Shown piece by piece: positions 1 through 9,367 of a stretch of 35,367 nucleotides of DNA. Location: positions 1-35,367 of the forward strand of contig CAZOTW010000004.1 in the NCBI GenBank assembly GCA_964582845.1, given 5' to 3'. Position 1 is the first letter of the stretch, and each line of letters starts with the position of its first letter. Source of the DNA: an uncultured Gammaproteobacteria bacterium. Its GTDB lineage: Bacteria; Patescibacteriota; Microgenomatia; UBA10105; UBA927. The translations under genes were made by a program, and so were the position numbers. The notes beneath the pieces are model-generated. The model ran no database searches. It saw nothing but the letters and a program-made list of their open reading frames with translations, and was not told where the DNA came from.

Positions 1-10
1 TTTGAGACAT
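1..10 (-). CDS. 5' end of a gene running off the left edge (MSQ...)
   Basis: ATG at 8-10 on the minus strand, preceded by a strong SD AAGGAGG (+ strand cctcctt, 15-21). Only 3 codons are visible. Confidence 0.55.
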
Positions 11-61
11 ATATCCTCCTTTGTATTGTACACAATTTATATTTGCTTCGTAAGACTCTAT

Positions 62-436
62 TCACTCCCCTTGCTTTTGTATTCCGGGCGCTATAACAAC
101 CGCTCCCAACTTCTCTAGCATACCGTCACGGGCTTGAGGTGATCCGAGTAAACGTGCCTCGGCGAATAACGGGTGTTGCGCTAGCACATCCTGTGCTTTT
201 CCCTTTAGACTGTCAAACAATCGTACAAGTTCCACCATGACGACGCTTTCGGCTAAAAACCGAGACTGCTCGACGCTGGGCTCTTGATTATCTGCATTCA
301 ACCGATCGAGCAAGCGAATACTCAAGATATACCGCACTTGAGCGTATTCGAAATACGCTTGCGGCGGCTTAGGAAAATCTCCTTTGTAGCTGTCGCTACG
401 TAAGTCCAAACAATGTTCCAGATTTGGTTCTGACAT
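62..436 (-). CDS. hypothetical protein (~124 aa), first gene after the attenuator-like leader
   Basis: ORF track gives 62..445. A perfect SD AGGAGGTGA (442-450) lies 5 nt before the ATG at 436, so the start is moved to MSEPNLEH. Confidence 0.75.
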   Translation of the reverse strand: MSEPNLEHCLDLRSDSYKGDFPKPPQAYFEYAQVRYILSIRLLDRLNADNQEPSVEQSRFLAESVVMVELVRLFDSLKGKAQDVLAQHPLFAEARLLGSPQARDGMLEKLGAVVIAPGIQKQGE

Positions 437-497
437 ACTATTCACCTCCTTTCGTACACACTAATCCCAGTCCCGCTCAGTGGGACGGGTAACCATC

Positions 498-521
498 AAA
501 AAACCTCCCGTTACGGGAGGT
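498..521 (-). terminator. intrinsic terminator (attenuator 3:4 hairpin)
   Basis: Minus strand reads CCTCCCG-TAA-CGGGAGG followed by TTTTTT. Confidence 0.8.
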
Positions 522-549
522 CGTCTGGTTGTTTAAGAAAAGAGGGTTC

Positions 550-621
550 TTAAGCCGCCACACCACCTCCCAACGGTTGTTGGGTTGTGGTAGTGGTTGT
601 TTGTCGGTTATTAAGTTTCAT
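550..621 (-). CDS. Thr-rich leader peptide MKLNNRQTTTTTTQQPLGGGVAA (23 aa)
   Basis: Translated by hand. Six consecutive Thr codons (583-600), GGGGGA SD-like sequence upstream, and alternative pairing with the downstream terminator. Confidence 0.7.
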   Translation of the reverse strand: MKLNNRQTTTTTTQQPLGGGVAA

Positions 622-705
622 AAAGCTATCCCCCTTCGCCCTGGCTTCGGCGGGATTGATGGTTGCTAACTTCGTCTCGAAGACTCGACTCACTAAGCAA
701 CCATC

Positions 706-776
706 AAAAAAGCCACCCTTTCTCGTTGGATCCCTTCGGCTTTGCTCAGGGAGGTTCCATCCAACTTTGGTGACTT
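706..776 (-). terminator. long interrupted hairpin plus U-tract (second terminator-like structure, with a REP-like cap)
   Basis: Minus strand reads AGTCACC..GTTGGAT..CCCTGAGCAAAGCCGAAGGG..ATCCAAC..GGTGGCT-TTTTT. Confidence 0.45.
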
Positions 777-855
777 AATTTCCTTCTGTTACGCCGAATT
801 ACGCGCTTCTCTTTGAGGTTGGTTAGGTCTCATGTAAACGAGAAGATTGATACGT

Positions 856-884
856 ACTATATCGCACTACTATTGGCCTGTCAA
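856..884 (-). promoter_or_regulatory. sigma70-type promoter for the long leader
   Basis: TTGACA (879-884), 17-nt spacer, TATAGT (856-861). Confidence 0.65.
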
Positions 885-1192
885 GCAAGTGGTGGAAAAC
901 CACCGACATGTTTTTCTAGACGATCCAGCCGTTTTTCGTGTTCGTTGAGGATGGGAAGAATGGTATGACCCATGTAGCCTACAAGATCGCCCACAATTTC
1001 TTTTTTGAGTCGTTTTTCCATAGCAGCAAGGTCGTCTTTGGTAGCAAACCTGTTGAGGTCGTCTTTGGTAGCAAACCTGTTGAGGTCGTCTTTGGTAGCA
1101 AACTTCGCGTTGAAACGCCTCTCCATCGCAGTCAAGTCGTCTTTGGTGGCAAATACGGCTTTGAGTTTCTTGATATCAGCATCCGTAATCAT
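881..1192 (-). CDS. small coiled-coil protein with FATKDDL repeats
   Basis: 103 aa with four FATKDDL units. Preceded by TTGACA-17-TAGAGT ending 6 nt before the ATG (leaderless start). Confidence 0.8.
   Translation of the reverse strand: MITDADIKKLKAVFATKDDLTAMERRFNAKFATKDDLNRFATKDDLNRFATKDDLAAMEKRLKKEIVGDLVGYMGHTILPILNEHEKRLDRLEKHVGGFPPLA
1029..1103. repeat. 27-bp perfect tandem repeat, ~2.8 copies
   Basis: aggtcgtctttggtagcaaacctgttg at 1029, 1056 and 1083 (partial), with a degenerate copy near 1134. Confidence 0.95.
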
Positions 1193-1223
1193 ACATCCAC
1201 TCTACTGCGTGAAAAATACTCTG

Positions 1224-2807
1224 TCAATCAATTCCGGGAGTTTGAAAACCCAATGGATGATGAAGACCACACATCTCTTGAGCCACCTGATCAAAAATTT
1301 TTAAACTGTCAGTTTTCGAACTGCTTCGAGCCATTTTCAATGCCATACGTATCGCAGTTTGATAATCGACTGTCTGGTTGGAAAGAAGAATATTTTGAGT
1401 GTAGTCCAATATAAGCGCCAAGCCACTATAGTTTAAGCCTGAGGAAGCTTGAGCAAGTTCAGTAATAAATATGTGATGACTTCCTTTATCAGGAAATTGG
1501 TTGGAATCGATCATCTGCTGCAAAAAAAGCGTTCTCTGTTCTAGATCTGGAAGTGGAAAATACACAAGGTTAAATCTTCGTGCAAATGCTGCCTCGATGT
1601 CCGGATGATTTAATGTGGCCATAATATATATCCCATAGGTATCTGTCAATCTTTCAAGAAGATCGAGGGCATAGGCGCGCTTTTCAGGGTCCACCATACC
1701 TTTCATATCACCATTATTGAGTGATGACTCAAATAATGCCTCCACATCATCCATGAAAATAACCACCGGTAATTGAAATATTCGTTTGACTCGTTCTAGA
1801 TCCGGTAAAATTCTTCCTTGGAAGATATCTTTATTACCCGGTGTTTGCTTATACAACATGTCTACCGGTATTTTGACCGTAAGGACATCTGGGTAAAAAC
1901 TAAATAAACGTGCAATCATACTTTTTCCAACCCCAGGTGCACCAATTAAAAGAGTATTCATTGGTCTTCCTTTTCCAGTAGCAAGCGGAGTATATAAATT
2001 TTGTGCAATATTTTTTCGTTGCGTATCTAAACCAACTATTTCTTGCTCTAACGCATGAGGCATCAGTTCTGCGAGCATTTTTTGATACACACCAATAAAT
2101 ATGCGTCTTCTCGTGTTCAGAGTTGCTTCCATTTGTTCTTGAGTTGAAAGATCAAATTTTCCGGCCATAATGAGTGAAGTCATAATAGCAAGATATGCCA
2201 ATTCTACTTCGCTCAACAGAGAATCAGTGTATTGATGAATTTCTACAGTTCCGCGCGATGGAATGTCACCGTGATATTTGGCTTTGTTGACCGCTAAAGT
2301 TCCCACTACTGGTTTTTCTTGTTCACCCACAAAAAATACACCCGCATCTTGAAAAGGGTTTTCCAGTATACTCGACCCATATAGACTAGGAACGACAAAA
2401 TAACATGGCGTAGGAGAAGTGAATCGATGTCTTAGGTGCTGATAGTTTCGAGATAACTCTACAGGGAGATAGAAAAACGTGCCTTCACGTAGAAAGGCAG
2501 CATTGCTATAGAGATTCATCAGTACATTTTTGAGACTTTGTACTTTTGGTGGGTTATTTTCTGTGTAAGGAATAGATATTCTGATAAGGTCATGCTGACT
2601 GTTGCCGATTTTTGCTTTACTCAGACACGGTACTGAGATTGTCTCATTATATGTTCCTAAGAAAGAGTTTATGGTATCAGTAAAACTCGCCAGTCGATCA
2701 GGGTTAGCTCTGAGAGCATAAATGAGAGGGTTTTCTGATCGCGGGTATGTTGGTTTTTTACCAAAGGAATCTTGTTGGGAGAAAGGTGCTTCTTTATTCA
2801 TAAGCAA
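1224..2807 (-). CDS. AAA+ ATPase with unknown N-terminal domain
   Basis: Walker A GAPGVGKS, Walker B IFMDDVE, sensor-1 ATLNHP, arginine finger AAFARRF. Confidence 0.85.
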   Translation of the reverse strand: MLMNKEAPFSQQDSFGKKPTYPRSENPLIYALRANPDRLASFTDTINSFLGTYNETISVPCLSKAKIGNSQHDLIRISIPYTENNPPKVQSLKNVLMNLYSNAAFLREGTFFYLPVELSRNYQHLRHRFTSPTPCYFVVPSLYGSSILENPFQDAGVFFVGEQEKPVVGTLAVNKAKYHGDIPSRGTVEIHQYTDSLLSEVELAYLAIMTSLIMAGKFDLSTQEQMEATLNTRRRIFIGVYQKMLAELMPHALEQEIVGLDTQRKNIAQNLYTPLATGKGRPMNTLLIGAPGVGKSMIARLFSFYPDVLTVKIPVDMLYKQTPGNKDIFQGRILPDLERVKRIFQLPVVIFMDDVEALFESSLNNGDMKGMVDPEKRAYALDLLERLTDTYGIYIMATLNHPDIEAAFARRFNLVYFPLPDLEQRTLFLQQMIDSNQFPDKGSHHIFITELAQASSGLNYSGLALILDYTQNILLSNQTVDYQTAIRMALKMARSSSKTDSLKIFDQVAQEMCGLHHPLGFQTPGID

Positions 2808-2900
2808 ATGAGATGAAATATTCCACTTATACTTTGATAAAGAAGATTATTATACACCAAATACAACATTCTTACGGCTTTCCTCGTTTCCCAGCCATTC

Positions 2901-2927
2901 GCTATCATGTAACGGTACATGATAGCA
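2901..2927. repeat. palindrome, copy 1 (operator- or REP-like)
   Basis: gctatcatgta-acgg-tacatgatagc has 11-bp perfect arms. It overlaps a TGnTAGCAT -10 candidate for the gene at 2935. Confidence 0.9.
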
Positions 2928-2934
2928 TAGGTAT

Positions 2935-3384
2935 ATGACACAAGTTTCCAGAAGAAAGTTGTCGCGCGCTATACAAAACCGCATCTATACAATTTTCACG
3001 AAAATCATCACGGATGTCCGTACACAATCCGAAGTTGAGGCGCTTTTGGAGGACTTCCTGACACCGACGGAACGAGTCATGTTGCCCAAGCGTTTGTGCA
3101 TCGCCTTTCTTTTGCTTAAGGGGTATAGCCATCGGACGATCGCTTCATATTTAAACGTGAGTTTTACCACAATCAACAGGGTCAGTACCGCGTTACAGGT
3201 AAGCGGTAAGGGGTATCAGGTGATGCTGACACGGATGCAGCATCATGAGGAGCTGGAGTCTATTTTAGAAAAAATTGAAGAGGGCGTATTAGGAGTTTTA
3301 GCAGCGACTGGCGGGCCGAGCCGCGTATGGAGGAGTTTGCAACAAGAGCATCGAAAAGAAAAAAGCCCCCGTACCCCGTTTTAA
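2935..3384 (+). CDS. TrpR-like YerC/YecD family HTH protein
   Basis: LLEDFLTPTERVMLPKRL...LLLKGYSHRTIASYLNVSFTTINRV matches the family pattern. Confidence 0.85.
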   Translation: MTQVSRRKLSRAIQNRIYTIFTKIITDVRTQSEVEALLEDFLTPTERVMLPKRLCIAFLLLKGYSHRTIASYLNVSFTTINRVSTALQVSGKGYQVMLTRMQHHEELESILEKIEEGVLGVLAATGGPSRVWRSLQQEHRKEKSPRTPF

Positions 3385-3390
3385 TTTCTT

Positions 3391-3417
3391 GCTATCATGT
3401 AACGGTACATGATAGCA
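3391..3417. repeat. palindrome, copy 2 (identical 27 bp)
   Basis: Same sequence as 2901-2927, 6 nt after the stop codon. The arms extend to 13 bp here. Confidence 0.9.
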
Positions 3418-3426
3418 ATAGCAGAA

Positions 3427-3966
3427 TTAGTTGGGGGGATTGCGTGGGATGCGAAATGCGTAAACGTGATTGGCGGCGTCTTGGCGACACATCTTTATGT
3501 GCGGGAAAATAAAACTGTTGGAAACAATCAGCGTTTGCGGTTTTAGCTCGTGGGTCAGCTTTTTCTCCAGTTTTTCCATGCGCCACGGGAGAAGGTAGAT
3601 AAGTACGACGTCGGCGTCTTTAAGGTTCGCGCTCCAAAAACTCCCCCATGTCGTCCACACGCGTCCGCGATACCCCGTCAGGATAGCGCGTAGGTTCGTA
3701 TAAAGGGCTAGAAAGGGGTTTATCTCTATGCCGCGCGCAATTGCCCCTTTTTGGGCAGCAAGGAACAGGAGCCTCCCGTCGCCGGAGCCAAGGTCGTAGA
3801 CGATGTCGCCCTTTTGTATCCGCGCCAGGTCAATCATGGCGTTACTAGCCTTTTTGGTAGTGGGTACAAACGGCGCGCCCGTCAGAAAAGCGATGCACAG
3901 GTAGAGCATGAAAATCACCAGGCAAAATTGGAGGACAAGGATAAATAGAGATAAGGCAAGCGCCAT
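3427..3966 (-). CDS. membrane-anchored class I SAM-dependent methyltransferase
   Basis: N-terminal TM helix, GAPFVPT, VYDLGSGDGR motif I, GIEINP, DADVVLIYL. Confidence 0.9.
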   Translation of the reverse strand: MALALSLFILVLQFCLVIFMLYLCIAFLTGAPFVPTTKKASNAMIDLARIQKGDIVYDLGSGDGRLLFLAAQKGAIARGIEINPFLALYTNLRAILTGYRGRVWTTWGSFWSANLKDADVVLIYLLPWRMEKLEKKLTHELKPQTLIVSNSFIFPHIKMCRQDAANHVYAFRIPRNPPN

Positions 3967-4022
3967 AGGTATGCGGGCATTGTAATACGACTATCCCCTA
4001 CCGACAAGCGCATTATCTGAAA

Positions 4023-4580
4023 TTATTTTACCGGGTCGGCATAGACGACGCGCCGTTTTTGATCAAAATTCCCTTCGCAGGTATAGAGCGTCAATTGGTT
4101 TTTATCGCTCAATATTGACTGTACATCATGCTCGCCTACATCCCGGGATCCACTGACGACGTAGCGTTTCCACGTATTATCGTGTTGAATCTCCATGACG
4201 TCTCCGGGCATTAAAAGGTAGAGATCACGCCACAGGGTTTTCCAGTTGTGGGCGTAGAGTATGACATTCCCCTGTCCGGGAACTGCGGATGTGGCAAGCC
4301 ACGCGACGGCATCCGGAAACATGTCCCAGTCGTTCCCGCGGACAGTCGCCCGCTTAATCGGCAGGTTTTTGCCGATTTTAGGAATATTGATGGCGGTAGG
4401 AGGATCTTTGGTGGCAGAAGTTGGCGTGGGAGATCGGGACGGTGCCGTAGTTGATGGTGTTTTCGATAGCCGCCCCCGTAGGGAAGGTATTGCACCCGTG
4501 CCTGCATAGACAGTAGCTCCTGTGACAAGAGAGAGGATAACCAAAAATACGGTGGTATTTTGAGGTTTAGGAAGTTTCAT
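4023..4580 (-). CDS. sortase
   Basis: N-terminal TM. Catalytic triad motifs GNVILYAH, LTLYTC and KRRVV. Confidence 0.9.
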   Translation of the reverse strand: MKLPKPQNTTVFLVILSLVTGATVYAGTGAIPSLRGRLSKTPSTTAPSRSPTPTSATKDPPTAINIPKIGKNLPIKRATVRGNDWDMFPDAVAWLATSAVPGQGNVILYAHNWKTLWRDLYLLMPGDVMEIQHDNTWKRYVVSGSRDVGEHDVQSILSDKNQLTLYTCEGNFDQKRRVVYADPVK

Positions 4581-5511
4581 TTACCCGCGCGAGCCTGTGG
4601 CCCAGCAGGAAAACAATAAGAGCTGTAGCGAGTGAAATCACAAATCGTGGTAGCGCATAGTTTGAACCAGTCGCGGCTAAAGTATCCGTGGACGCGCCTA
4701 AGACCTGGCCGCCCGTTGAAGCACCTAAGACTTGTCCGCCAGCTGGCGGAGCGGTACAACTCGGGCAACTGGAGCGTCCATCGCTCCTGCCGTCACTCAG
4801 TCCATCGCCCGGGCCGCCACCGTTAGAAGGAGGCGGGGGGACATCAGTGGGCGTAACCGTGGGGTCGTTGGGAACACATTGCTGCTCTTCGTCGTAGTGA
4901 TACCCCTCGGGAAGTACCGGTTGATTCTCCGGAATGTTTGGACATACATCAACAGGAGGAGGCGTACAGGATTCTCCGCCTGTAACTTGTACCCCGTCAA
5001 CATCATATGCATCTGCATCGGGAAAATCGTTAAAATTATCCCGGTTACTTGTATCTGTTATTCGTACGTATTGGGCACACGTTATCCCTTCTGGTACGGG
5101 AACTGTATCATCCTGAGTAACCGTTCCGGCTGCGGTCCAGTTGGTTATTCCGTCTACGGAGACCTCTACTAAAGCAGTTTCATCGGGATATCCCTCGTTG
5201 GTTGCTTCAACAACGATGACTCCGCCGCTAAAGGGATTATCAAAGCGAAGTACAATGTTGCCGCCAAAACCAAGAGAAAAGAAATGTCCATCGACGGTGT
5301 CGTTTTCTGCAATACCCAATGCCGACTCTGGATTGCTCCTTAGGGGATTGACAATGCTTACTGGTGTTCCTCCTTTGGTATTTAGTTGATTAGAAGAAAA
5401 GACGCTATCTGCCCACGGGCCTGGGCCGTCGCCAGCGGCCTGGACATGTACCACTGCTACTCCCAACAACAAACAGCCAAAAACAATAAGGCCTGCAATT
5501 TTTGCTTTCAT
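4567..5511 (-). CDS. sortase-anchored surface protein (LAATG sorting signal)
   Basis: Signal peptide, acidic beta-rich domain (SLGFGG...YVRITD...YDVDGV), Pro/Gly linker, GGPGDGLSDGRSDGRS, GGQVLGAST x2, LAATG, TM helix, basic tail. Confidence 0.85.
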   Translation of the reverse strand: MKAKIAGLIVFGCLLLGVAVVHVQAAGDGPGPWADSVFSSNQLNTKGGTPVSIVNPLRSNPESALGIAENDTVDGHFFSLGFGGNIVLRFDNPFSGGVIVVEATNEGYPDETALVEVSVDGITNWTAAGTVTQDDTVPVPEGITCAQYVRITDTSNRDNFNDFPDADAYDVDGVQVTGGESCTPPPVDVCPNIPENQPVLPEGYHYDEEQQCVPNDPTVTPTDVPPPPSNGGGPGDGLSDGRSDGRSSCPSCTAPPAGGQVLGASTGGQVLGASTDTLAATGSNYALPRFVISLATALIVFLLGHRLARVNETS

Positions 5512-5577
5512 ACGTGTAGCTTAATCCTTATAACATCATCAGAGTGTCGCGTGCAACGGATCAATTTTTAGTACAAA

Positions 5578-6777
5578 CTATATCGTACCCAGAATCCGCA
5601 TCCAGTGTGCATATTCTTTTATCTTCATTGAGGTAAGGCGCCGGTCAAGCGATGCCCGGATATCCTTTCGATTCTGATACAGCGCGTAAAGCAGCCTGGT
5701 GAGGTTGGAGGTTGTCACCAGGTCCCCTTGCACACAATAGCGGCCCATTTTTATGGTTTGAGTAATACCTAGGGTCTTATGTTCATAGGCTATGGCGACA
5801 AACGGCGTTGTCTGGGTAGCCGCGAGTATATTTGCGTGCATGCGCATGCCCACGAGCAGGGCGCATCGGGCGTATATTTTTTGCGCATGATCGGGAGAAC
5901 GAAGAATAATGGGTTTTCTGACCCGCACGCCATGACCCATCATGAGGCGGGTAAGGCGACGTGATACAGATAAGTCAATGTCCCCATGTTTCGGAGCATG
6001 GACCTGCACAATCGGCTGAATGGATAAACCGGTTTTTTGGGCAAACGAAACAAGAGCGCTGGCAACGCTCGCCTCAAGTCGTTGCTGTACGTTTGGTGGA
6101 TACCAATTTCGGAGGGTAACGCCTACGACTGCTTGTGATTTCCTTGGGTTTTTTCCGTGTTTACGAGAAGGAAGAAGCAATCCATGATCCGGACCAAGAC
6201 GCGCATGGAGAAGGCCAAATTTTCGCGCTAGACGTAACGATATGCGTTCACGGATAAAAAGAAGGCATGGGAAAGAAAGTAGCTGGGCAACAAGCGCCGC
6301 CTGCCACCTGTACGCAAAAGGGCCGAAGCCCATGGGTGCGATGATGACTGGTTTTCCTGATCGACGAGCCACAAAAAACGGAACAAGTTGCGATAACAGA
6401 AATATCGATTGCGTTATTCCTTTCCGGGCCCGTAGGTACCCGTTTCCGACGAATATGATGGCATCGGCGTTTTTATAGGCGGCGAGAATATTCGTAAGCG
6501 TTTTATCTATCGTGAGTTGGGGGAACACAAGTTGGATACAAAGTATCGCGCATCGGAGCGCGCGATTAACCAATTTTGTATCCGTAAAAAGAAGCCATGA
6601 TGCCAGTAATCGCATCGTCGGAAGATGTATTTGTTTGGCTTGTGTTTCGGGATCAAACGACTGAATGACGACGTGAGACTTTGGCCGGGCATGTTTAATG
6701 ATGGATAAAAGAGAGAGAAGTTGCGCTTGATCGCCTATATTTTTCGGGCTTGTGGCGTTGGGAATCAGAATCTTCAT
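5578..6777 (-). CDS. polysaccharide pyruvyl transferase family (WcaK-like)
   Basis: NIGDQA, IRERIS, PD and GMRMHANILA...IAYEHK motifs. Confidence 0.88.
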   Translation of the reverse strand: MKILIPNATSPKNIGDQAQLLSLLSIIKHARPKSHVVIQSFDPETQAKQIHLPTMRLLASWLLFTDTKLVNRALRCAILCIQLVFPQLTIDKTLTNILAAYKNADAIIFVGNGYLRARKGITQSIFLLSQLVPFFVARRSGKPVIIAPMGFGPFAYRWQAALVAQLLSFPCLLFIRERISLRLARKFGLLHARLGPDHGLLLPSRKHGKNPRKSQAVVGVTLRNWYPPNVQQRLEASVASALVSFAQKTGLSIQPIVQVHAPKHGDIDLSVSRRLTRLMMGHGVRVRKPIILRSPDHAQKIYARCALLVGMRMHANILAATQTTPFVAIAYEHKTLGITQTIKMGRYCVQGDLVTTSNLTRLLYALYQNRKDIRASLDRRLTSMKIKEYAHWMRILGTI

Positions 6778-6789
6778 AAGAGTGAAGAC

Positions 6790-7335
6790 TTACTTACGCG
6801 AAAGCGCAGGGTCGTCGGCTATGGCGGTGACGACCAACCGTTTGGAGTCCAGAAATCCGGTACAGGTATAGAGGGTGATGCGAGCATCTTTGGAATTGGC
6901 AAGGATTCGCGTGTCGTCGGGTGTAACGACGGATAAAAACGCGACGGTGAATCCTCGGCGTTGTCCGTTTGACAGAAGCACGGTCAAGCGGTCCCCCGGT
7001 TTCACCAGGCGCAGGTTTCCAAGCAGATTTGGCCAATTATGGCCGTACATGATGCTGTTGCCTACGTCTCCCGGTACGGCTGAGGCAGACAAATACGAGA
7101 CGCCCCTTTTGGTGTCCTGCCATTGTCCGGTGGTTATCGTGGCTGGGACAATAGGTAGGGTAATATGGGCCGTAGGGATCGTCAGGACGACCGGGAAGGG
7201 GGTATTGGCTGAAGGAGCAGATAACTTAGGTAAGTCCCGAAATGAGAGGCGTAGCGGCGTTGTACGCTGCCACGTAAGGTACATACCAAACAGTACCAAA
7301 GCCACGCCGAGCGTGAGAAATATACGGTGTGTCAT
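6790..7335 (-). CDS. sortase (second paralog)
   Basis: GNSIMYGH, ITLYTC, KRLVV. Start reassigned to MTHRIF (7335), just after the upstream stop at 7343. Confidence 0.9.
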   Translation of the reverse strand: MTHRIFLTLGVALVLFGMYLTWQRTTPLRLSFRDLPKLSAPSANTPFPVVLTIPTAHITLPIVPATITTGQWQDTKRGVSYLSASAVPGDVGNSIMYGHNWPNLLGNLRLVKPGDRLTVLLSNGQRRGFTVAFLSVVTPDDTRILANSKDARITLYTCTGFLDSKRLVVTAIADDPALSRK

Positions 7336-7342
7336 AGGGGTG

Positions 7343-7978
7343 TTATTTGCGGGAAACCTTTTGGGATTTACGGAGTTTACTAGCAAACCCAAGAAGCATA
7401 CAAGCGACTCCCAGTGCGTATACACTCATAACAAAGAGGACGTCTCCGGTAAACGCCAGGCCCAATACGGCGCCTAACACTTGTCCGCCACGTCCGTCGC
7501 TTCGTCCGTCGCTTCTCCCATCGCTTAGGCCGTCCCCGGGTCCACCCTGGTTGGAAGGAGGAGTTGAAAGACAGCTATAAGAGCTATTTTGTGCTAAATA
7601 CCACCCGCCGTCCAATCCCCACGCGGAGCCGTCCGGAATAGAAATCCAGCCTTCGGATTCAAGTACTTTTATCTCGTCTTCTGTCAGGCTTGATGCTTTC
7701 CACCAATTGGTTTGGATGCCTTCTCCTGAAGCGGAGCAGAAGCATTGAGTGATAAAATCGCGATTCTCTGGATTTTGCGTGTATACGGTATCGCTGCCGG
7801 TATATGTCGCGGTGCTTCCTACTATCCCATGGGTTCCGTTGCCCCAGGAAGCAATCACTTCTCCTTGGGGATTGACGCACGAAGGAAATGTTGGCGTTTC
7901 CGTGGCATAAGCCGCCGTTACCGGAAGAAAGATGGCAAGGACGAAGAGGACGATAAAGAAACGCGCGATACGTTGCAT
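7343..7978 (-). CDS. sortase-anchored surface protein (LAFTG sorting signal)
   Basis: Signal peptide, Cys/Trp-containing domain, GGPGDGLSDGRSDGRSDGR, GGQVLGA, LAFTG, TM helix, KLRKSQKVSRK tail. Confidence 0.85.
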   Translation of the reverse strand: MQRIARFFIVLFVLAIFLPVTAAYATETPTFPSCVNPQGEVIASWGNGTHGIVGSTATYTGSDTVYTQNPENRDFITQCFCSASGEGIQTNWWKASSLTEDEIKVLESEGWISIPDGSAWGLDGGWYLAQNSSYSCLSTPPSNQGGPGDGLSDGRSDGRSDGRGGQVLGAVLGLAFTGDVLFVMSVYALGVACMLLGFASKLRKSQKVSRK

Positions 7979-8034
7979 TGATTTTTTGTCTCCCCCGGCA
8001 GAGGAATGCAGAACAGACTTTATTATAGGTTGAT

Positions 8035-8043
8035 ATTATAGCA
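8035..8043 (-). promoter_or_regulatory. extended -10 element upstream of the first substrate-sortase pair
   Basis: TGcTATAAT on the minus strand, with a TTGCAT-like -35 upstream. Confidence 0.5.
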
Positions 8044-8063
8044 CACGCGGGAGAAAATGCAAA

Positions 8064-9314
8064 TTACGGCGATTTGGTAAATAGGCTTTTAATATAGTCC
8101 AGAATCATATAAATAATATTCTGATACGGTTTCTCCATAACTATTTTTATATTTAGGTCATTTTTATTGATGACAAGCTCTTTATCTGTGTATCCGTTGA
8201 CATGTATCGTAATGGCGGCGTCGCCCTCGATTATAGGAAGGTTGAAATTACCGTCTATAGCTGTTTTTACGTTTCGATATACTGAAGACACTTCAGCATT
8301 AGCTATAGGTTTACGAAATTGATTTATAACGTGTCCTGTAATAACTCTTGGAGTAAAATACTCCGTGATCACTGATACTGCTTTTCTCGGGTTGCCATCG
8401 TCGTTCCACAGCTTGGTAGAACCTCCGACACTCACCCAGTAATTGATACCGATGAGCTGGTCTACAGAGACAAGTTTCCGAAATGTTTCATTCAAATAGC
8501 GCGCCTGTGCCTCCTCATCCATGGGACCATGAATATCCAGTATCGGTGCGCCGAACTCACCCAAAACCACGCGTCCACCGCTTTGAGCAGCCAGCGCGCG
8601 AATGTCCAAAACCAGCCGATCCGGCGAAGCGACGTAATGATCAATTGTGACAATGCCGTCGAGAGCCAGGGTGGTAGGTTTATCCATAATCAGTTTGGCG
8701 ACATCTCCGTTCATAGAAAAATAGTTTGAAGCCACGCGCTTCCCGATTTGGATAAATGCGTCTTTGGTAACCTGGTATTCGTCAATTAAGAATTTTCTAT
8801 ACCCCCTCACGTCTCCGGTTATTTGCGGATTGCCCGGCCCGCCGTTTTCACACTCCGGGCACCCGCTAAAGATGTCTCCGTCTTCAAATACACCAGGGTG
8901 ATTGAGGATAAAGTCGCGGGTTTTGGTAATGTGCTCCTCGCGCGAAATACCCGTATATCCAAACCACTTCTCCCAGCCAGACCAGTTGCCGCGAAACCAG
9001 ACGTTAAGATGGTATTTCCTTGCAGCGGCAACCCAGCGCTTGAGTATCGGGACAAACTCTTCATCATACGGAGTCGCAATAGCCACATGGGTGGCTCCGG
9101 TATCGGCAATATTTTTTACCTGCGTATCTATGGTTTGGTCAAACGACGGGTCGTTGAGTTTTTCGCGGCTGGCGTCGCGGGAGTATTTCATCGTATCGAC
9201 GGATTGAAACGCCCACCATGTCGCTTTATCTGTAGTAGATGTGACGTTACGTTTCAGAAGCAGTGCGAGTAAAAACACGATAAGAACAATGGAAATAATA
9301 ATAAGTCGCTTCAT
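8064..9314 (-). CDS. membrane-anchored clan GH-A-like glycoside hydrolase with C-terminal carboxypeptidase-regulatory-like domain
   Basis: N-terminal anchor MKRLIIISIV, PECEN (acid/base candidate), VLGEFG (nucleophile candidate), ITGHVIN..PIANAEV..DGNF domain. Confidence 0.7.
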   Translation of the reverse strand: MKRLIIISIVLIVFLLALLLKRNVTSTTDKATWWAFQSVDTMKYSRDASREKLNDPSFDQTIDTQVKNIADTGATHVAIATPYDEEFVPILKRWVAAARKYHLNVWFRGNWSGWEKWFGYTGISREEHITKTRDFILNHPGVFEDGDIFSGCPECENGGPGNPQITGDVRGYRKFLIDEYQVTKDAFIQIGKRVASNYFSMNGDVAKLIMDKPTTLALDGIVTIDHYVASPDRLVLDIRALAAQSGGRVVLGEFGAPILDIHGPMDEEAQARYLNETFRKLVSVDQLIGINYWVSVGGSTKLWNDDGNPRKAVSVITEYFTPRVITGHVINQFRKPIANAEVSSVYRNVKTAIDGNFNLPIIEGDAAITIHVNGYTDKELVINKNDLNIKIVMEKPYQNIIYMILDYIKSLFTKSP

Positions 9315-9367
9315 GTGCCGATATATTATACCTTGAAATACGATCCATCGGTAGCTAGCGTTCAATA

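Follow-up and report, generated by a model that had tools for sequence, protein, structure and literature searches.

A predicted threonine leader-peptide attenuator behind a compact T-box-like element upstream of thrS in a Patescibacteria genome

We analysed a 35,367-nt stretch of DNA (the window) from an uncultured bacterium of the Candidate Phyla Radiation (CPR; Patescibacteria). It comprises positions 1–35367 of contig C4 in a 116-contig assembly and begins at a contig end, just inside thrS, the gene for threonyl-tRNA synthetase (ThrRS). Upstream of thrS, in the direction of transcription, lie a promoter, a compact T-box-like element, an inserted palindromic repeat, a short open reading frame (ORF) with a run of threonine codons, an intrinsic terminator and a 124-codon ORF (ORF124). 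All attenuator features are on the minus strand, and coordinates are window positions. We argue that a Thr-specific, ribosome-mediated (leader-peptide) transcription attenuator controls thrS together with the accessory ORF124, a reading to which we assign a probability of about 0.8. This rests on the sequence features themselves, the alternative folds open to the RNA, the assignment of the downstream gene as thrS, and the finding that such leaders are conserved and enriched among relatives.

A threonine-codon ORF with alternative hairpins

The leader ORF runs from an ATG at 621–619 to a TAA at 552–550 and encodes the 23-residue peptide MKLNNRQTTTTTTQQPLGGGVAA. Six Thr codons in a row (ACA ACC ACT ACC ACA ACC) occupy 600–583, and a Shine–Dalgarno (SD)-like sequence, AAGGGGGA, is found 7–8 nt 5′ of the ATG. 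The RNA can pair in three ways. Region 1 (596–579) forms a 1:2 hairpin with region 2 (574–558), itself inside the ORF and ending 6 nt before the stop codon. Region 2 (GGGAGGUGGUGUGG, 571–558) can alternatively pair at 12 of 14 positions with region 3 (CCAGACGACCUCCC, 528–515), as found both by hand and with ViennaRNA. Region 3 in turn supplies the 5′ arm of an intrinsic terminator (3:4; 522–498), which has its stem at 522–502 (nine pairs, six of them G–C, with a 3-nt loop) and a T6 tract at 503–498. The initial annotation, made from the letters alone, had described the 23-residue ORF with its six consecutive Thr codons, the downstream pairing of the Thr-codon region, the 12-of-14 match between regions 2 and 3 and the 3:4 hairpin followed by U6; all of these are borne out.

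The fold is substantially more stable than expected by chance. The minimum free energy (MFE) of the RNA from 630 to 490 is −50.2 kcal/mol, against −30.2±3.6 kcal/mol for dinucleotide shuffles (z=−5.6), and none of 200 shuffles folded as well as the native sequence, whose MFE structure contains both the 1:2 hairpin and the terminator. In isolation, the 2:3 and 3:4 hairpins have folding energies of −30.7 and −15.0 kcal/mol, respectively.

We scanned the whole assembly (1.37 Mb) for small ORFs with at least four identical residues in a stretch of eight and a terminator nearby. This returned 334 raw candidates, a figure that counts alternative starts and terminator stems separately for each ORF and consists mostly of hits inside coding regions. 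The Thr leader was the sole ORF in the real sequence to combine six of eight identical residues with an SD. Other candidates (Thr, Ile, Leu, Tyr, Gly and Arg) were dropped, as they mostly lay in coding regions or behind the terminators of tRNA genes or greA. One exception, a small ORF encoding MNTNIQFSLALLLLSP at C57:7155–7205 (minus strand), is followed by two tandem terminators and then an aminotransferase-like gene, named by eye from its N terminus; MNTNIQFSLALLLLSP is a possible Leu-sensing leader.

Across window positions 1–1500, the Rfam Thr_leader family (RF00506) gave no match at E≤10; the Thr leader is analogous to that family and not a member of it. The only matches in this region at the same threshold were at chance level, to Phe_leader (17.8 bits, through the terminator), IS128 and bxd_5.

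Predicted switching of the terminator

Attenuation of the thrL type, as the initial annotation had proposed, makes a specific prediction: a ribosome on the Thr codons should abolish the terminator and a ribosome at the stop codon should spare it. Folding the minus-strand leader yielded the 1:2, 2:3 and 3:4 structures as alternatives, and the predicted logic holds in silico. The ribosome was modelled as a 30-nt mask in MFE folding, a crude treatment that is indicative only. All nine terminator pairs were kept without a ribosome and with the A site at the stop codon, where the ribosome masks region 2 (574–558) and leaves the terminator intact. With the A site on any of Thr codons 1–5, none of the nine pairs remained and the MFE structure moved to the 2:3 helix.

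Identity of the downstream gene and a second haplotype

The gene at the edge of the window (10–1, minus strand) has its ATG at 10–8 and a ribosome-binding site (RBS), AGGAGG, at 20–15, and is cut by the contig end. Its identity comes from contig C81 (4,432 nt) of the same assembly. C81 ends in a copy that is 95% identical to window 554–494; it is also 100% identical to window 54–1 and then runs into the gene begun at window position 10. This gene is a 595-residue ORF with tRNA_SAD, tRNA-synt_2b (class II core) and HGTP_anticodon domains, a set that identifies it as ThrRS. The best matches of this ThrRS are to records of Candidatus Gottesmanbacteria (83% and 78% identity), which places the source organism within the CPR, as the initial annotation had assumed. 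The overlap with C81 and its continuation into thrS make thrS the target of the attenuator.

The order on C81 is thrS, infC, rplT, a 104-residue ORF, a Phe-rich leader with a terminator, a 70-residue ORF and pheS. The attenuator would hence control thrS within a classical thrS–infC–rplT–pheS neighbourhood, and the operon does continue past the left edge of the window, as had been supposed when only its first codons were in view. The initial annotation had also thought a Thr attenuator unusual for CPR bacteria without amino-acid biosynthesis. This expectation falls away, since a cognate synthetase is the target, as in Escherichia coli pheM-pheST, and there is no paradox.

The leader upstream of pheS (C81 880–1046, minus strand) encodes the peptide MTTQNAFFFFYFTSISGGSFGCKPV, has its own terminator and precedes the 70-residue ORF and pheS. 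Its terminator is lost in folds with a ribosome on the first three Phe codons, the behaviour of a classical attenuator.

C81 differs from the window in one major respect. It joins the leader terminator, with a different loop, to the region upstream of thrS without ORF124 (C81 4340–4432 against window 55–493). From the assembly alone, we read C81 and the window as two haplotypes in the sampled population. Four public sequencing runs yielded no contig spanning the ORF124 indel; one 183-nt contig identical to window 138–320 was present in runs X1 and X2, which are possibly one data set.

Threonine leaders upstream of thrS in relatives

We examined 80 CPR thrS loci for small ORFs within 600 nt upstream. 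ORFs with at least five Thr in eight residues were found at 7 of the 80 loci on the sense strand, at none on the antisense strand and in 1 of 308 control segments; at a threshold of six or more, the counts were five, zero and zero. No amino acid other than Thr stands out upstream of CPR thrS. Example leader peptides are MQKFTTTTTTTATPLYRQWF, MKTIFCATTTTTTTNPP, MTVEIRKTTTATTTPP and MKIFTTTTTSC. Where a U tract is present it is preceded by a terminator of the CCUCC...GGAGG type, with which an upstream GGAGG-type region 2 competes. Of eleven Thr leaders with a U tract that were folded with the ribosome mask, ten keep their terminator with the ribosome at the stop codon and lose it in at least one Thr stall position. 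By the criterion used, L072 and L016 are without a U tract. In the homologous leaders at loci L103, L106, L040 and L016 the Thr run is retained, and the remainder of the peptide drifts. This is the opposite of hairpins conserved around a lost Thr run, the pattern that the initial annotation had named as telling against attenuation.

The same comparison bears on whether the ORF is translated at all. The ACC/ACA repeats resemble the strand complementary to GGUGGUGUGG, and the SD is imperfect, both of which would suit hairpins that act as a constitutive terminator or an RNA-stability structure, the Thr run being a by-product of a C/A-rich strand that pairs with G-rich region 2 in an untranslated ORF. 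We regard this as very improbable. Five homologous and at least seven non-homologous leaders have the Thr run in one frame with a start ATG and a stop codon. Enrichment upstream of thrS is confined to Thr and to the sense strand, and the pheS leader of the same genome carries Phe codons instead. Moreover, a constitutive terminator before an essential gene would be harmful.

Less probable still, in our view, is that the product of the ORF has a function of its own, perhaps as a secreted or modified Thr-rich peptide, and that the ORF is not a sensor. The length class of the ORF is conserved and a Gly-rich tail recurs (LGGGVAA and LGGSPAA), but the peptides diverge outside the Thr run (QPFVGRCVSG, QLGWEMWAW and ATPLYRQWF) and the Gly codons overlie region 2 of the RNA. 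A Pfam scan of the first 11 ORFs (62–9365) showed no gene for processing or export. Leader-peptide attenuation is therefore the reading that we carry forward.

A compact T-box-like element precedes the Thr leader

A sigma-70-type promoter is predicted on the minus strand at 884–856, with TTGACA at 884–879, a 17-nt spacer and TATAGT at 861–856 (11 of 12 consensus matches). The leader transcript is likely to start at about 849, and no further promoter-like site was found on the minus strand from 856 down to position 1. Between this promoter and the Thr leader lies an element of about 140 nt (847–706, minus strand), overlooked in the initial annotation, that is conserved upstream of thrS in relatives, where a TTGACA...TATA arrangement likewise precedes it.

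The hallmarks of a T-box include a specifier codon followed by a purine and a 7-nt UGGN-ACC bulge. An alignment of 32 copies of the element reveals both. A basal helix, P1 (845–840 with 811–806), is followed by a specifier hairpin that has ACC at 823–821 in its loop and then A at 820. A CGC:GCG pairing then encloses a second hairpin. Further downstream, helix A1 (765–760 with 730–725) leads into a 7-nt bulge, UGGAACC (759–753), and then helix A2, and an outer stem (GUCACC/GGUGGC, 774–769 with 717–712) adjoins a U6 tract at 711–706. In the specifier, which reads A-C-N-A, the A, C and final A are invariant in all 32 copies, and N is C in 28, U in two and G in two, so that every copy presents a Thr codon followed by a purine. 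The bulge is UGGAACC in 28 copies, UGGAAAC in two and UGGGACC in two. As we read the ARAGORN output, the two tRNA-Thr genes of the genome, with anticodons UGU and GGU, each carry a U after the acceptor stem (U73), which would pair with the A of UGGA in the bulge.

Covariation supports these helices. A1 occurs in ten sequence-pair variants, A2 and the specifier stem covary, and the outer stem lies directly against the U tract in 30 of 32 copies. Compensatory changes are seen in 13 of the 23 pairs of the structure. Pairing is kept in 96.3% of cells of the alignment, against 84.1% in column shuffles and 35–47% with slid partners. A covariance model (R1) built from the 32 aligned copies finds the element once in the source genome and once each in 73 of the 87 genomes of its order, among them all six of a second family.

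The element at 847–706 thus resembles a T-box of compact form, one that goes undetected by Rfam. Three results count against this assignment. The Rfam T-box model (RF00230) gave no match at E≤10 to 685–860, a simple terminator scan does not call the stem and U6 of the element, and the outer stem flanks, or encloses, the bulged A1 hairpin with no shared bases, such that the canonical competition between terminator and antiterminator is not evident. RF00230 likewise gave no match at the gathering score in nine related loci that carry the element. The distal platform of Stem I, which contacts the tRNA elbow, is not present: only 3–5 nt separate P1 from the specifier hairpin in 28 of the 32 copies, and the other four have an inserted hairpin. 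Our guess is that the outer stem is kept from closing by steric hindrance from a docked tRNA acceptor arm.

Canonical-looking T-boxes are found elsewhere in the same genome, at C18:116–310 (L124) and C9:~6200–6480 (L123), which score 41.9 and 36.1 bits with RF00230 (gathering score, 93). One of them precedes ileS and the other precedes a gene for a tRNA-binding-domain protein and proS. In both, the bulge itself (UGGUACC) is the pairing partner of the 3′ arm of a short stem beside the U tract.

Two side observations concern the distribution of the T-box-like element. At L097:1505–1639 and L105:1501–1633 (minus strand), the same Thr-specifier leader precedes not thrS but a gene for a YbaK/EbsC-like aminoacyl-tRNA deacylase (NCBIfam E=1.2e-12, a weak match, below the cut-off). 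Several short contigs in the two groundwater metagenome runs X5 and X6 match only window 803–848, the Stem I/specifier core, and then diverge, which is consistent with the presence of this leader in many different organisms.

Two elements in tandem and an inserted repeat

At five of the 32 loci with the T-box-like element (the window, L016, L040, L103 and L106), a homologous Thr leader comes next, and at all five it is followed by a small ORF of 63–131 residues and then thrS. At the other 27, the U tract of the element leads straight to the gene (thrS, except at L097 and L105), with neither Thr leader nor small ORF. The leader ATG lies 0–6 nt after the U tract of the T-box-like element at four of the five tandem loci; in the window, an inserted repeat occupies this position.

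The tandem raises the question of what the Thr leader serves. As the five tandem loci all have an extra small ORF between leader and thrS while the other 27 have neither, as ORF124 is polymorphic in the population, and as ORF124 and the ORF of L103 are distant homologues, the Thr leader and its terminator could be an inserted accessory cassette that mainly regulates the passenger ORF, with control of thrS a by-product and the T-box-like leader the real regulator of thrS. Against this, C81 joins the leader terminator directly to the region upstream of thrS without any ORF, and the distant CPR loci L018, L034, L061, L080 and L091 have a Thr leader directly before thrS with no passenger. The regulatory codons, moreover, match thrS, and the passenger ORFs of L016/L040 and of L106 are, by eye, unlike ORF124. 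We consider the cassette explanation unlikely, and prefer an attenuator whose target is thrS.

The inserted repeat (705–628, minus strand) is an interspersed palindromic element of two hairpins, HP1 (705–658) and HP2 (~656–628), that separates the Thr leader from the T-box-like terminator. GGGGGA, the SD-like sequence of the leader, lies in the 3′ arm of HP2. The genome holds seven full and two partial copies, and several copies per genome are found across the family. Copies are at window 628–729 (minus strand), C81:839–944, C40:4937–5046, C69:3145–3250, C1:59479–59577, C1:60208–60315 and C8:31165–31270. In every case the repeat begins immediately at a leader terminator's U tract (TTTTTTGATGG...). 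HP1 differs from copy to copy by compensatory changes, and the copies lie in the 5′ leaders of unrelated genes (a glnA-like gene, rplJ in a relative, thrS and pheS). Rfam gave no match to the repeat. An attC/integron reading was rejected by eye, as the GTT...AAC order is opposite to that of attC.

ORF124 and neighbouring genes

ORF124 (436–62, minus strand) encodes 124 residues from an ATG at 436–434 to a stop at 64–62, with the RBS GGAGGTGA. In the window haplotype it is the first gene after the attenuator. The initial annotation had taken it to be the first regulated gene. This stands in so far as ORF124 is the first downstream ORF in the window; it is an accessory gene, absent from the second haplotype, C81. 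No Pfam or NCBIfam family matches it, and among 5.8 billion clustered proteins it matches only itself. A phmmer search of 1.84 billion representatives returned one relative (E=1.5e-5). ORF124 is 30% identical over 66 residues to the ORF at the same position in L103. A confident AlphaFold2 model is all helical (predicted local distance difference test score, 81.6), and Foldseek retrieved nothing from the PDB at E≤0.001, its best hit being a generic helical bundle at E=2.5. Nor is ORF124 similar to the 70-residue ORF behind the Phe leader. On these predictions, ORF124 is a near-orphan helical accessory protein that is polymorphic in the population.

Two further genes of the window may be mentioned. 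A 103-residue ORF (1192–881, minus strand) with four copies of an ATKDDL motif terminates at the leader promoter; it belongs to no Pfam or NCBIfam family and has no similarity to the 104-residue ORF before the Phe leader. At 2935–3384 (plus strand) lies a gene for a Trp_repressor-family protein (Pfam E=1.1e-15), in a group said to be without amino-acid biosynthesis.

Proposed mechanism

We propose that a long leader, transcribed from one promoter (884–856), contains two sensors in series. In the first (847–706), the specifier loop would present the Thr codon ACC, and the UGGAACC bulge would pair with the UCCA end of uncharged tRNA-Thr, the element ending in a stem and U6. In the second (621–498), the outcome would depend on the supply of charged tRNA-Thr. 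When it is plentiful, the ribosome would reach the stop codon and cover region 2, the 3:4 hairpin would form and transcription would stop. When it is scarce, the ribosome would stall on the six Thr codons and hold region 1, leaving region 2 free to pair with region 3, and transcription would read through into ORF124 and thrS. We infer translation of the ORF, stalling, the response to charged tRNA-Thr and the efficiencies of termination from the architecture described above. Hence, the cell probably checks its supply of threonine tRNA twice before making more enzyme. The tandem may bring a benefit, since the T-box-like element would read only the ACC-decoding tRNA-Thr(GGU), whereas the ACA and ACC/ACU codons of the leader would sample both isoacceptors.

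Several observations weigh against leader-peptide attenuation at this locus. The mask on which the predicted switch depends is crude, and when the leader is folded in a longer context the switch occurs at Thr codon 3, with the terminator persisting at Thr codons 1 and 6. The leader SD is imperfect and partly paired in HP2 of the inserted repeat. Among the relatives, L020 shows no switch in mask folding, the unconstrained MFE structures of L106, L040 and L080 are already those of the antiterminator, and L016, which lacks a U tract, hides the next SD in a hairpin and looks translational. The Thr leader is also dispensable, being absent from 27 of 32 loci with the T-box-like element. A search of public sequencing runs for the locus matched no RNA run and two DNA runs with 15% of words. 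Set against these are the in-frame Thr codons, their enrichment upstream of thrS and the switching of ten of eleven leaders with a U tract. We take the finding to be real, and the mechanism is most likely the one first proposed from the sequence, which the thrS target makes orthodox in principle.

A wider picture can be offered, tentatively and at somewhat less than even odds. In this CPR order, thrS may be guarded by a streamlined descendant of the T-box, unseen by current models, in which the terminator stem encloses the acceptor-binding hairpin. Docked, uncharged tRNA-Thr would block closure of the outer stem, a geometry unlike that of every described T-box. A subset of the order would then have gained the modular Thr leader together with a fast-evolving helical protein. 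The result would be two mechanistically different sensors of one tRNA, the first reading the charging of tRNA-Thr(GGU) directly and the second reading decoding by both isoacceptors.

Comparison with known systems

An attenuator before an aminoacyl-tRNA synthetase gene is a textbook principle, and the Thr leader alone is of modest novelty. E. coli thrL (RF00506) has a similar run of Thr codons and the same 1:2, 2:3 and 3:4 logic, but it mixes Thr and Ile codons and controls Thr biosynthesis, whereas the target here is a synthetase. In E. coli pheM-pheST, a short ORF rich in cognate codons, alternative hairpins and an intrinsic terminator precede the genes of the cognate synthetase. The locus described here is alike in each of these features and in its thrS–infC–rplT–pheS neighbourhood, in which pheS here has its own Phe leader. 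It differs in that the pair is Thr and thrS and the phylum is CPR, and the sequences are not similar, the Rfam Phe_leader model scoring only 17.8 bits where its gathering score is 55.

Leader-peptide attenuators have been reported, or at least proposed, for E. coli pheST and Streptomyces trpS and leuS (PMC1262725), for S. lividans thrS and alaS (PMC8079986) and for hisS paralogues in bacilli (PMC2965389). The Streptomyces leaders (thrL-thrS, alaL-alaS, trpS and leuS) resemble ours in that a leader-peptide attenuator is proposed upstream of thrS (PMC8079986, PMC1262725). S. lividans thrL, with only two Thr codons, is without a clear U-rich terminator (PMC8079986), whereas the present leader combines six Thr codons in a row with a canonical terminator. 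E. coli thrS, by contrast, is autoregulated at translation (PMC2965389).

The element at 847–706 shares with the T-box (RF00230) a loop in which a purine follows the cognate codon, a 7-nt bulge (UGGNACC) that separates two helices and whose N matches the tRNA discriminator, and a position upstream of the cognate synthetase. It differs in being undetected by the model, in its minimal Stem I and in a U-tract stem that encloses the bulged hairpin. T-boxes with a short Stem I are also seen in actinobacterial ileS leaders. These are class II in TBDB (PMC7778990).

The added value of the locus is its context, namely a compact T-box variant missed by Rfam, the tandem and a near-orphan passenger gene. 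The variant offers a small natural scaffold (~140 nt, with a minimal Stem I) for studies of tRNA recognition, and it implies that Rfam-based censuses of T-boxes undercount. CPR bacteria depend on scavenged amino acids, and their gene regulation is almost uncharted; a literature search that left out most subscription journals found no paper pairing Patescibacteria or the Candidate Phyla Radiation with the T-box (riboswitch) or with transcription attenuation, and wider queries brought up nothing on CPR. The locus suggests that CPR bacteria keep classical RNA sensing of tRNA charging for their synthetase genes and combine mechanisms in doing so, with leader peptides before thrS and pheS, T-boxes before ileS and proS, and the compact T-box variant before thrS.

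The arrangement in series has a precedent in the rtpA (anti-TRAP) operon of Bacillus subtilis, in which a T-box is followed by rtpLP, a leader peptide with Trp codons (Chen & Yanofsky 2003, as summarised in PMC10327191). In both, on that summary, one leader would sense the same tRNA twice, with a tRNA-binding RNA followed by a leader peptide that contains cognate codons. The systems differ in amino acid, target and phylum, and in the first sensor, which here is a non-canonical T-box variant. They differ also in the second, which in rtpA, as the summary has it, controls translation initiation of the next gene, whereas here it has a full terminator and antiterminator. If our reading is right, the tandem upstream of thrS joins the B. 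subtilis anti-TRAP operon as the second case in nature of tRNA sensing in series.

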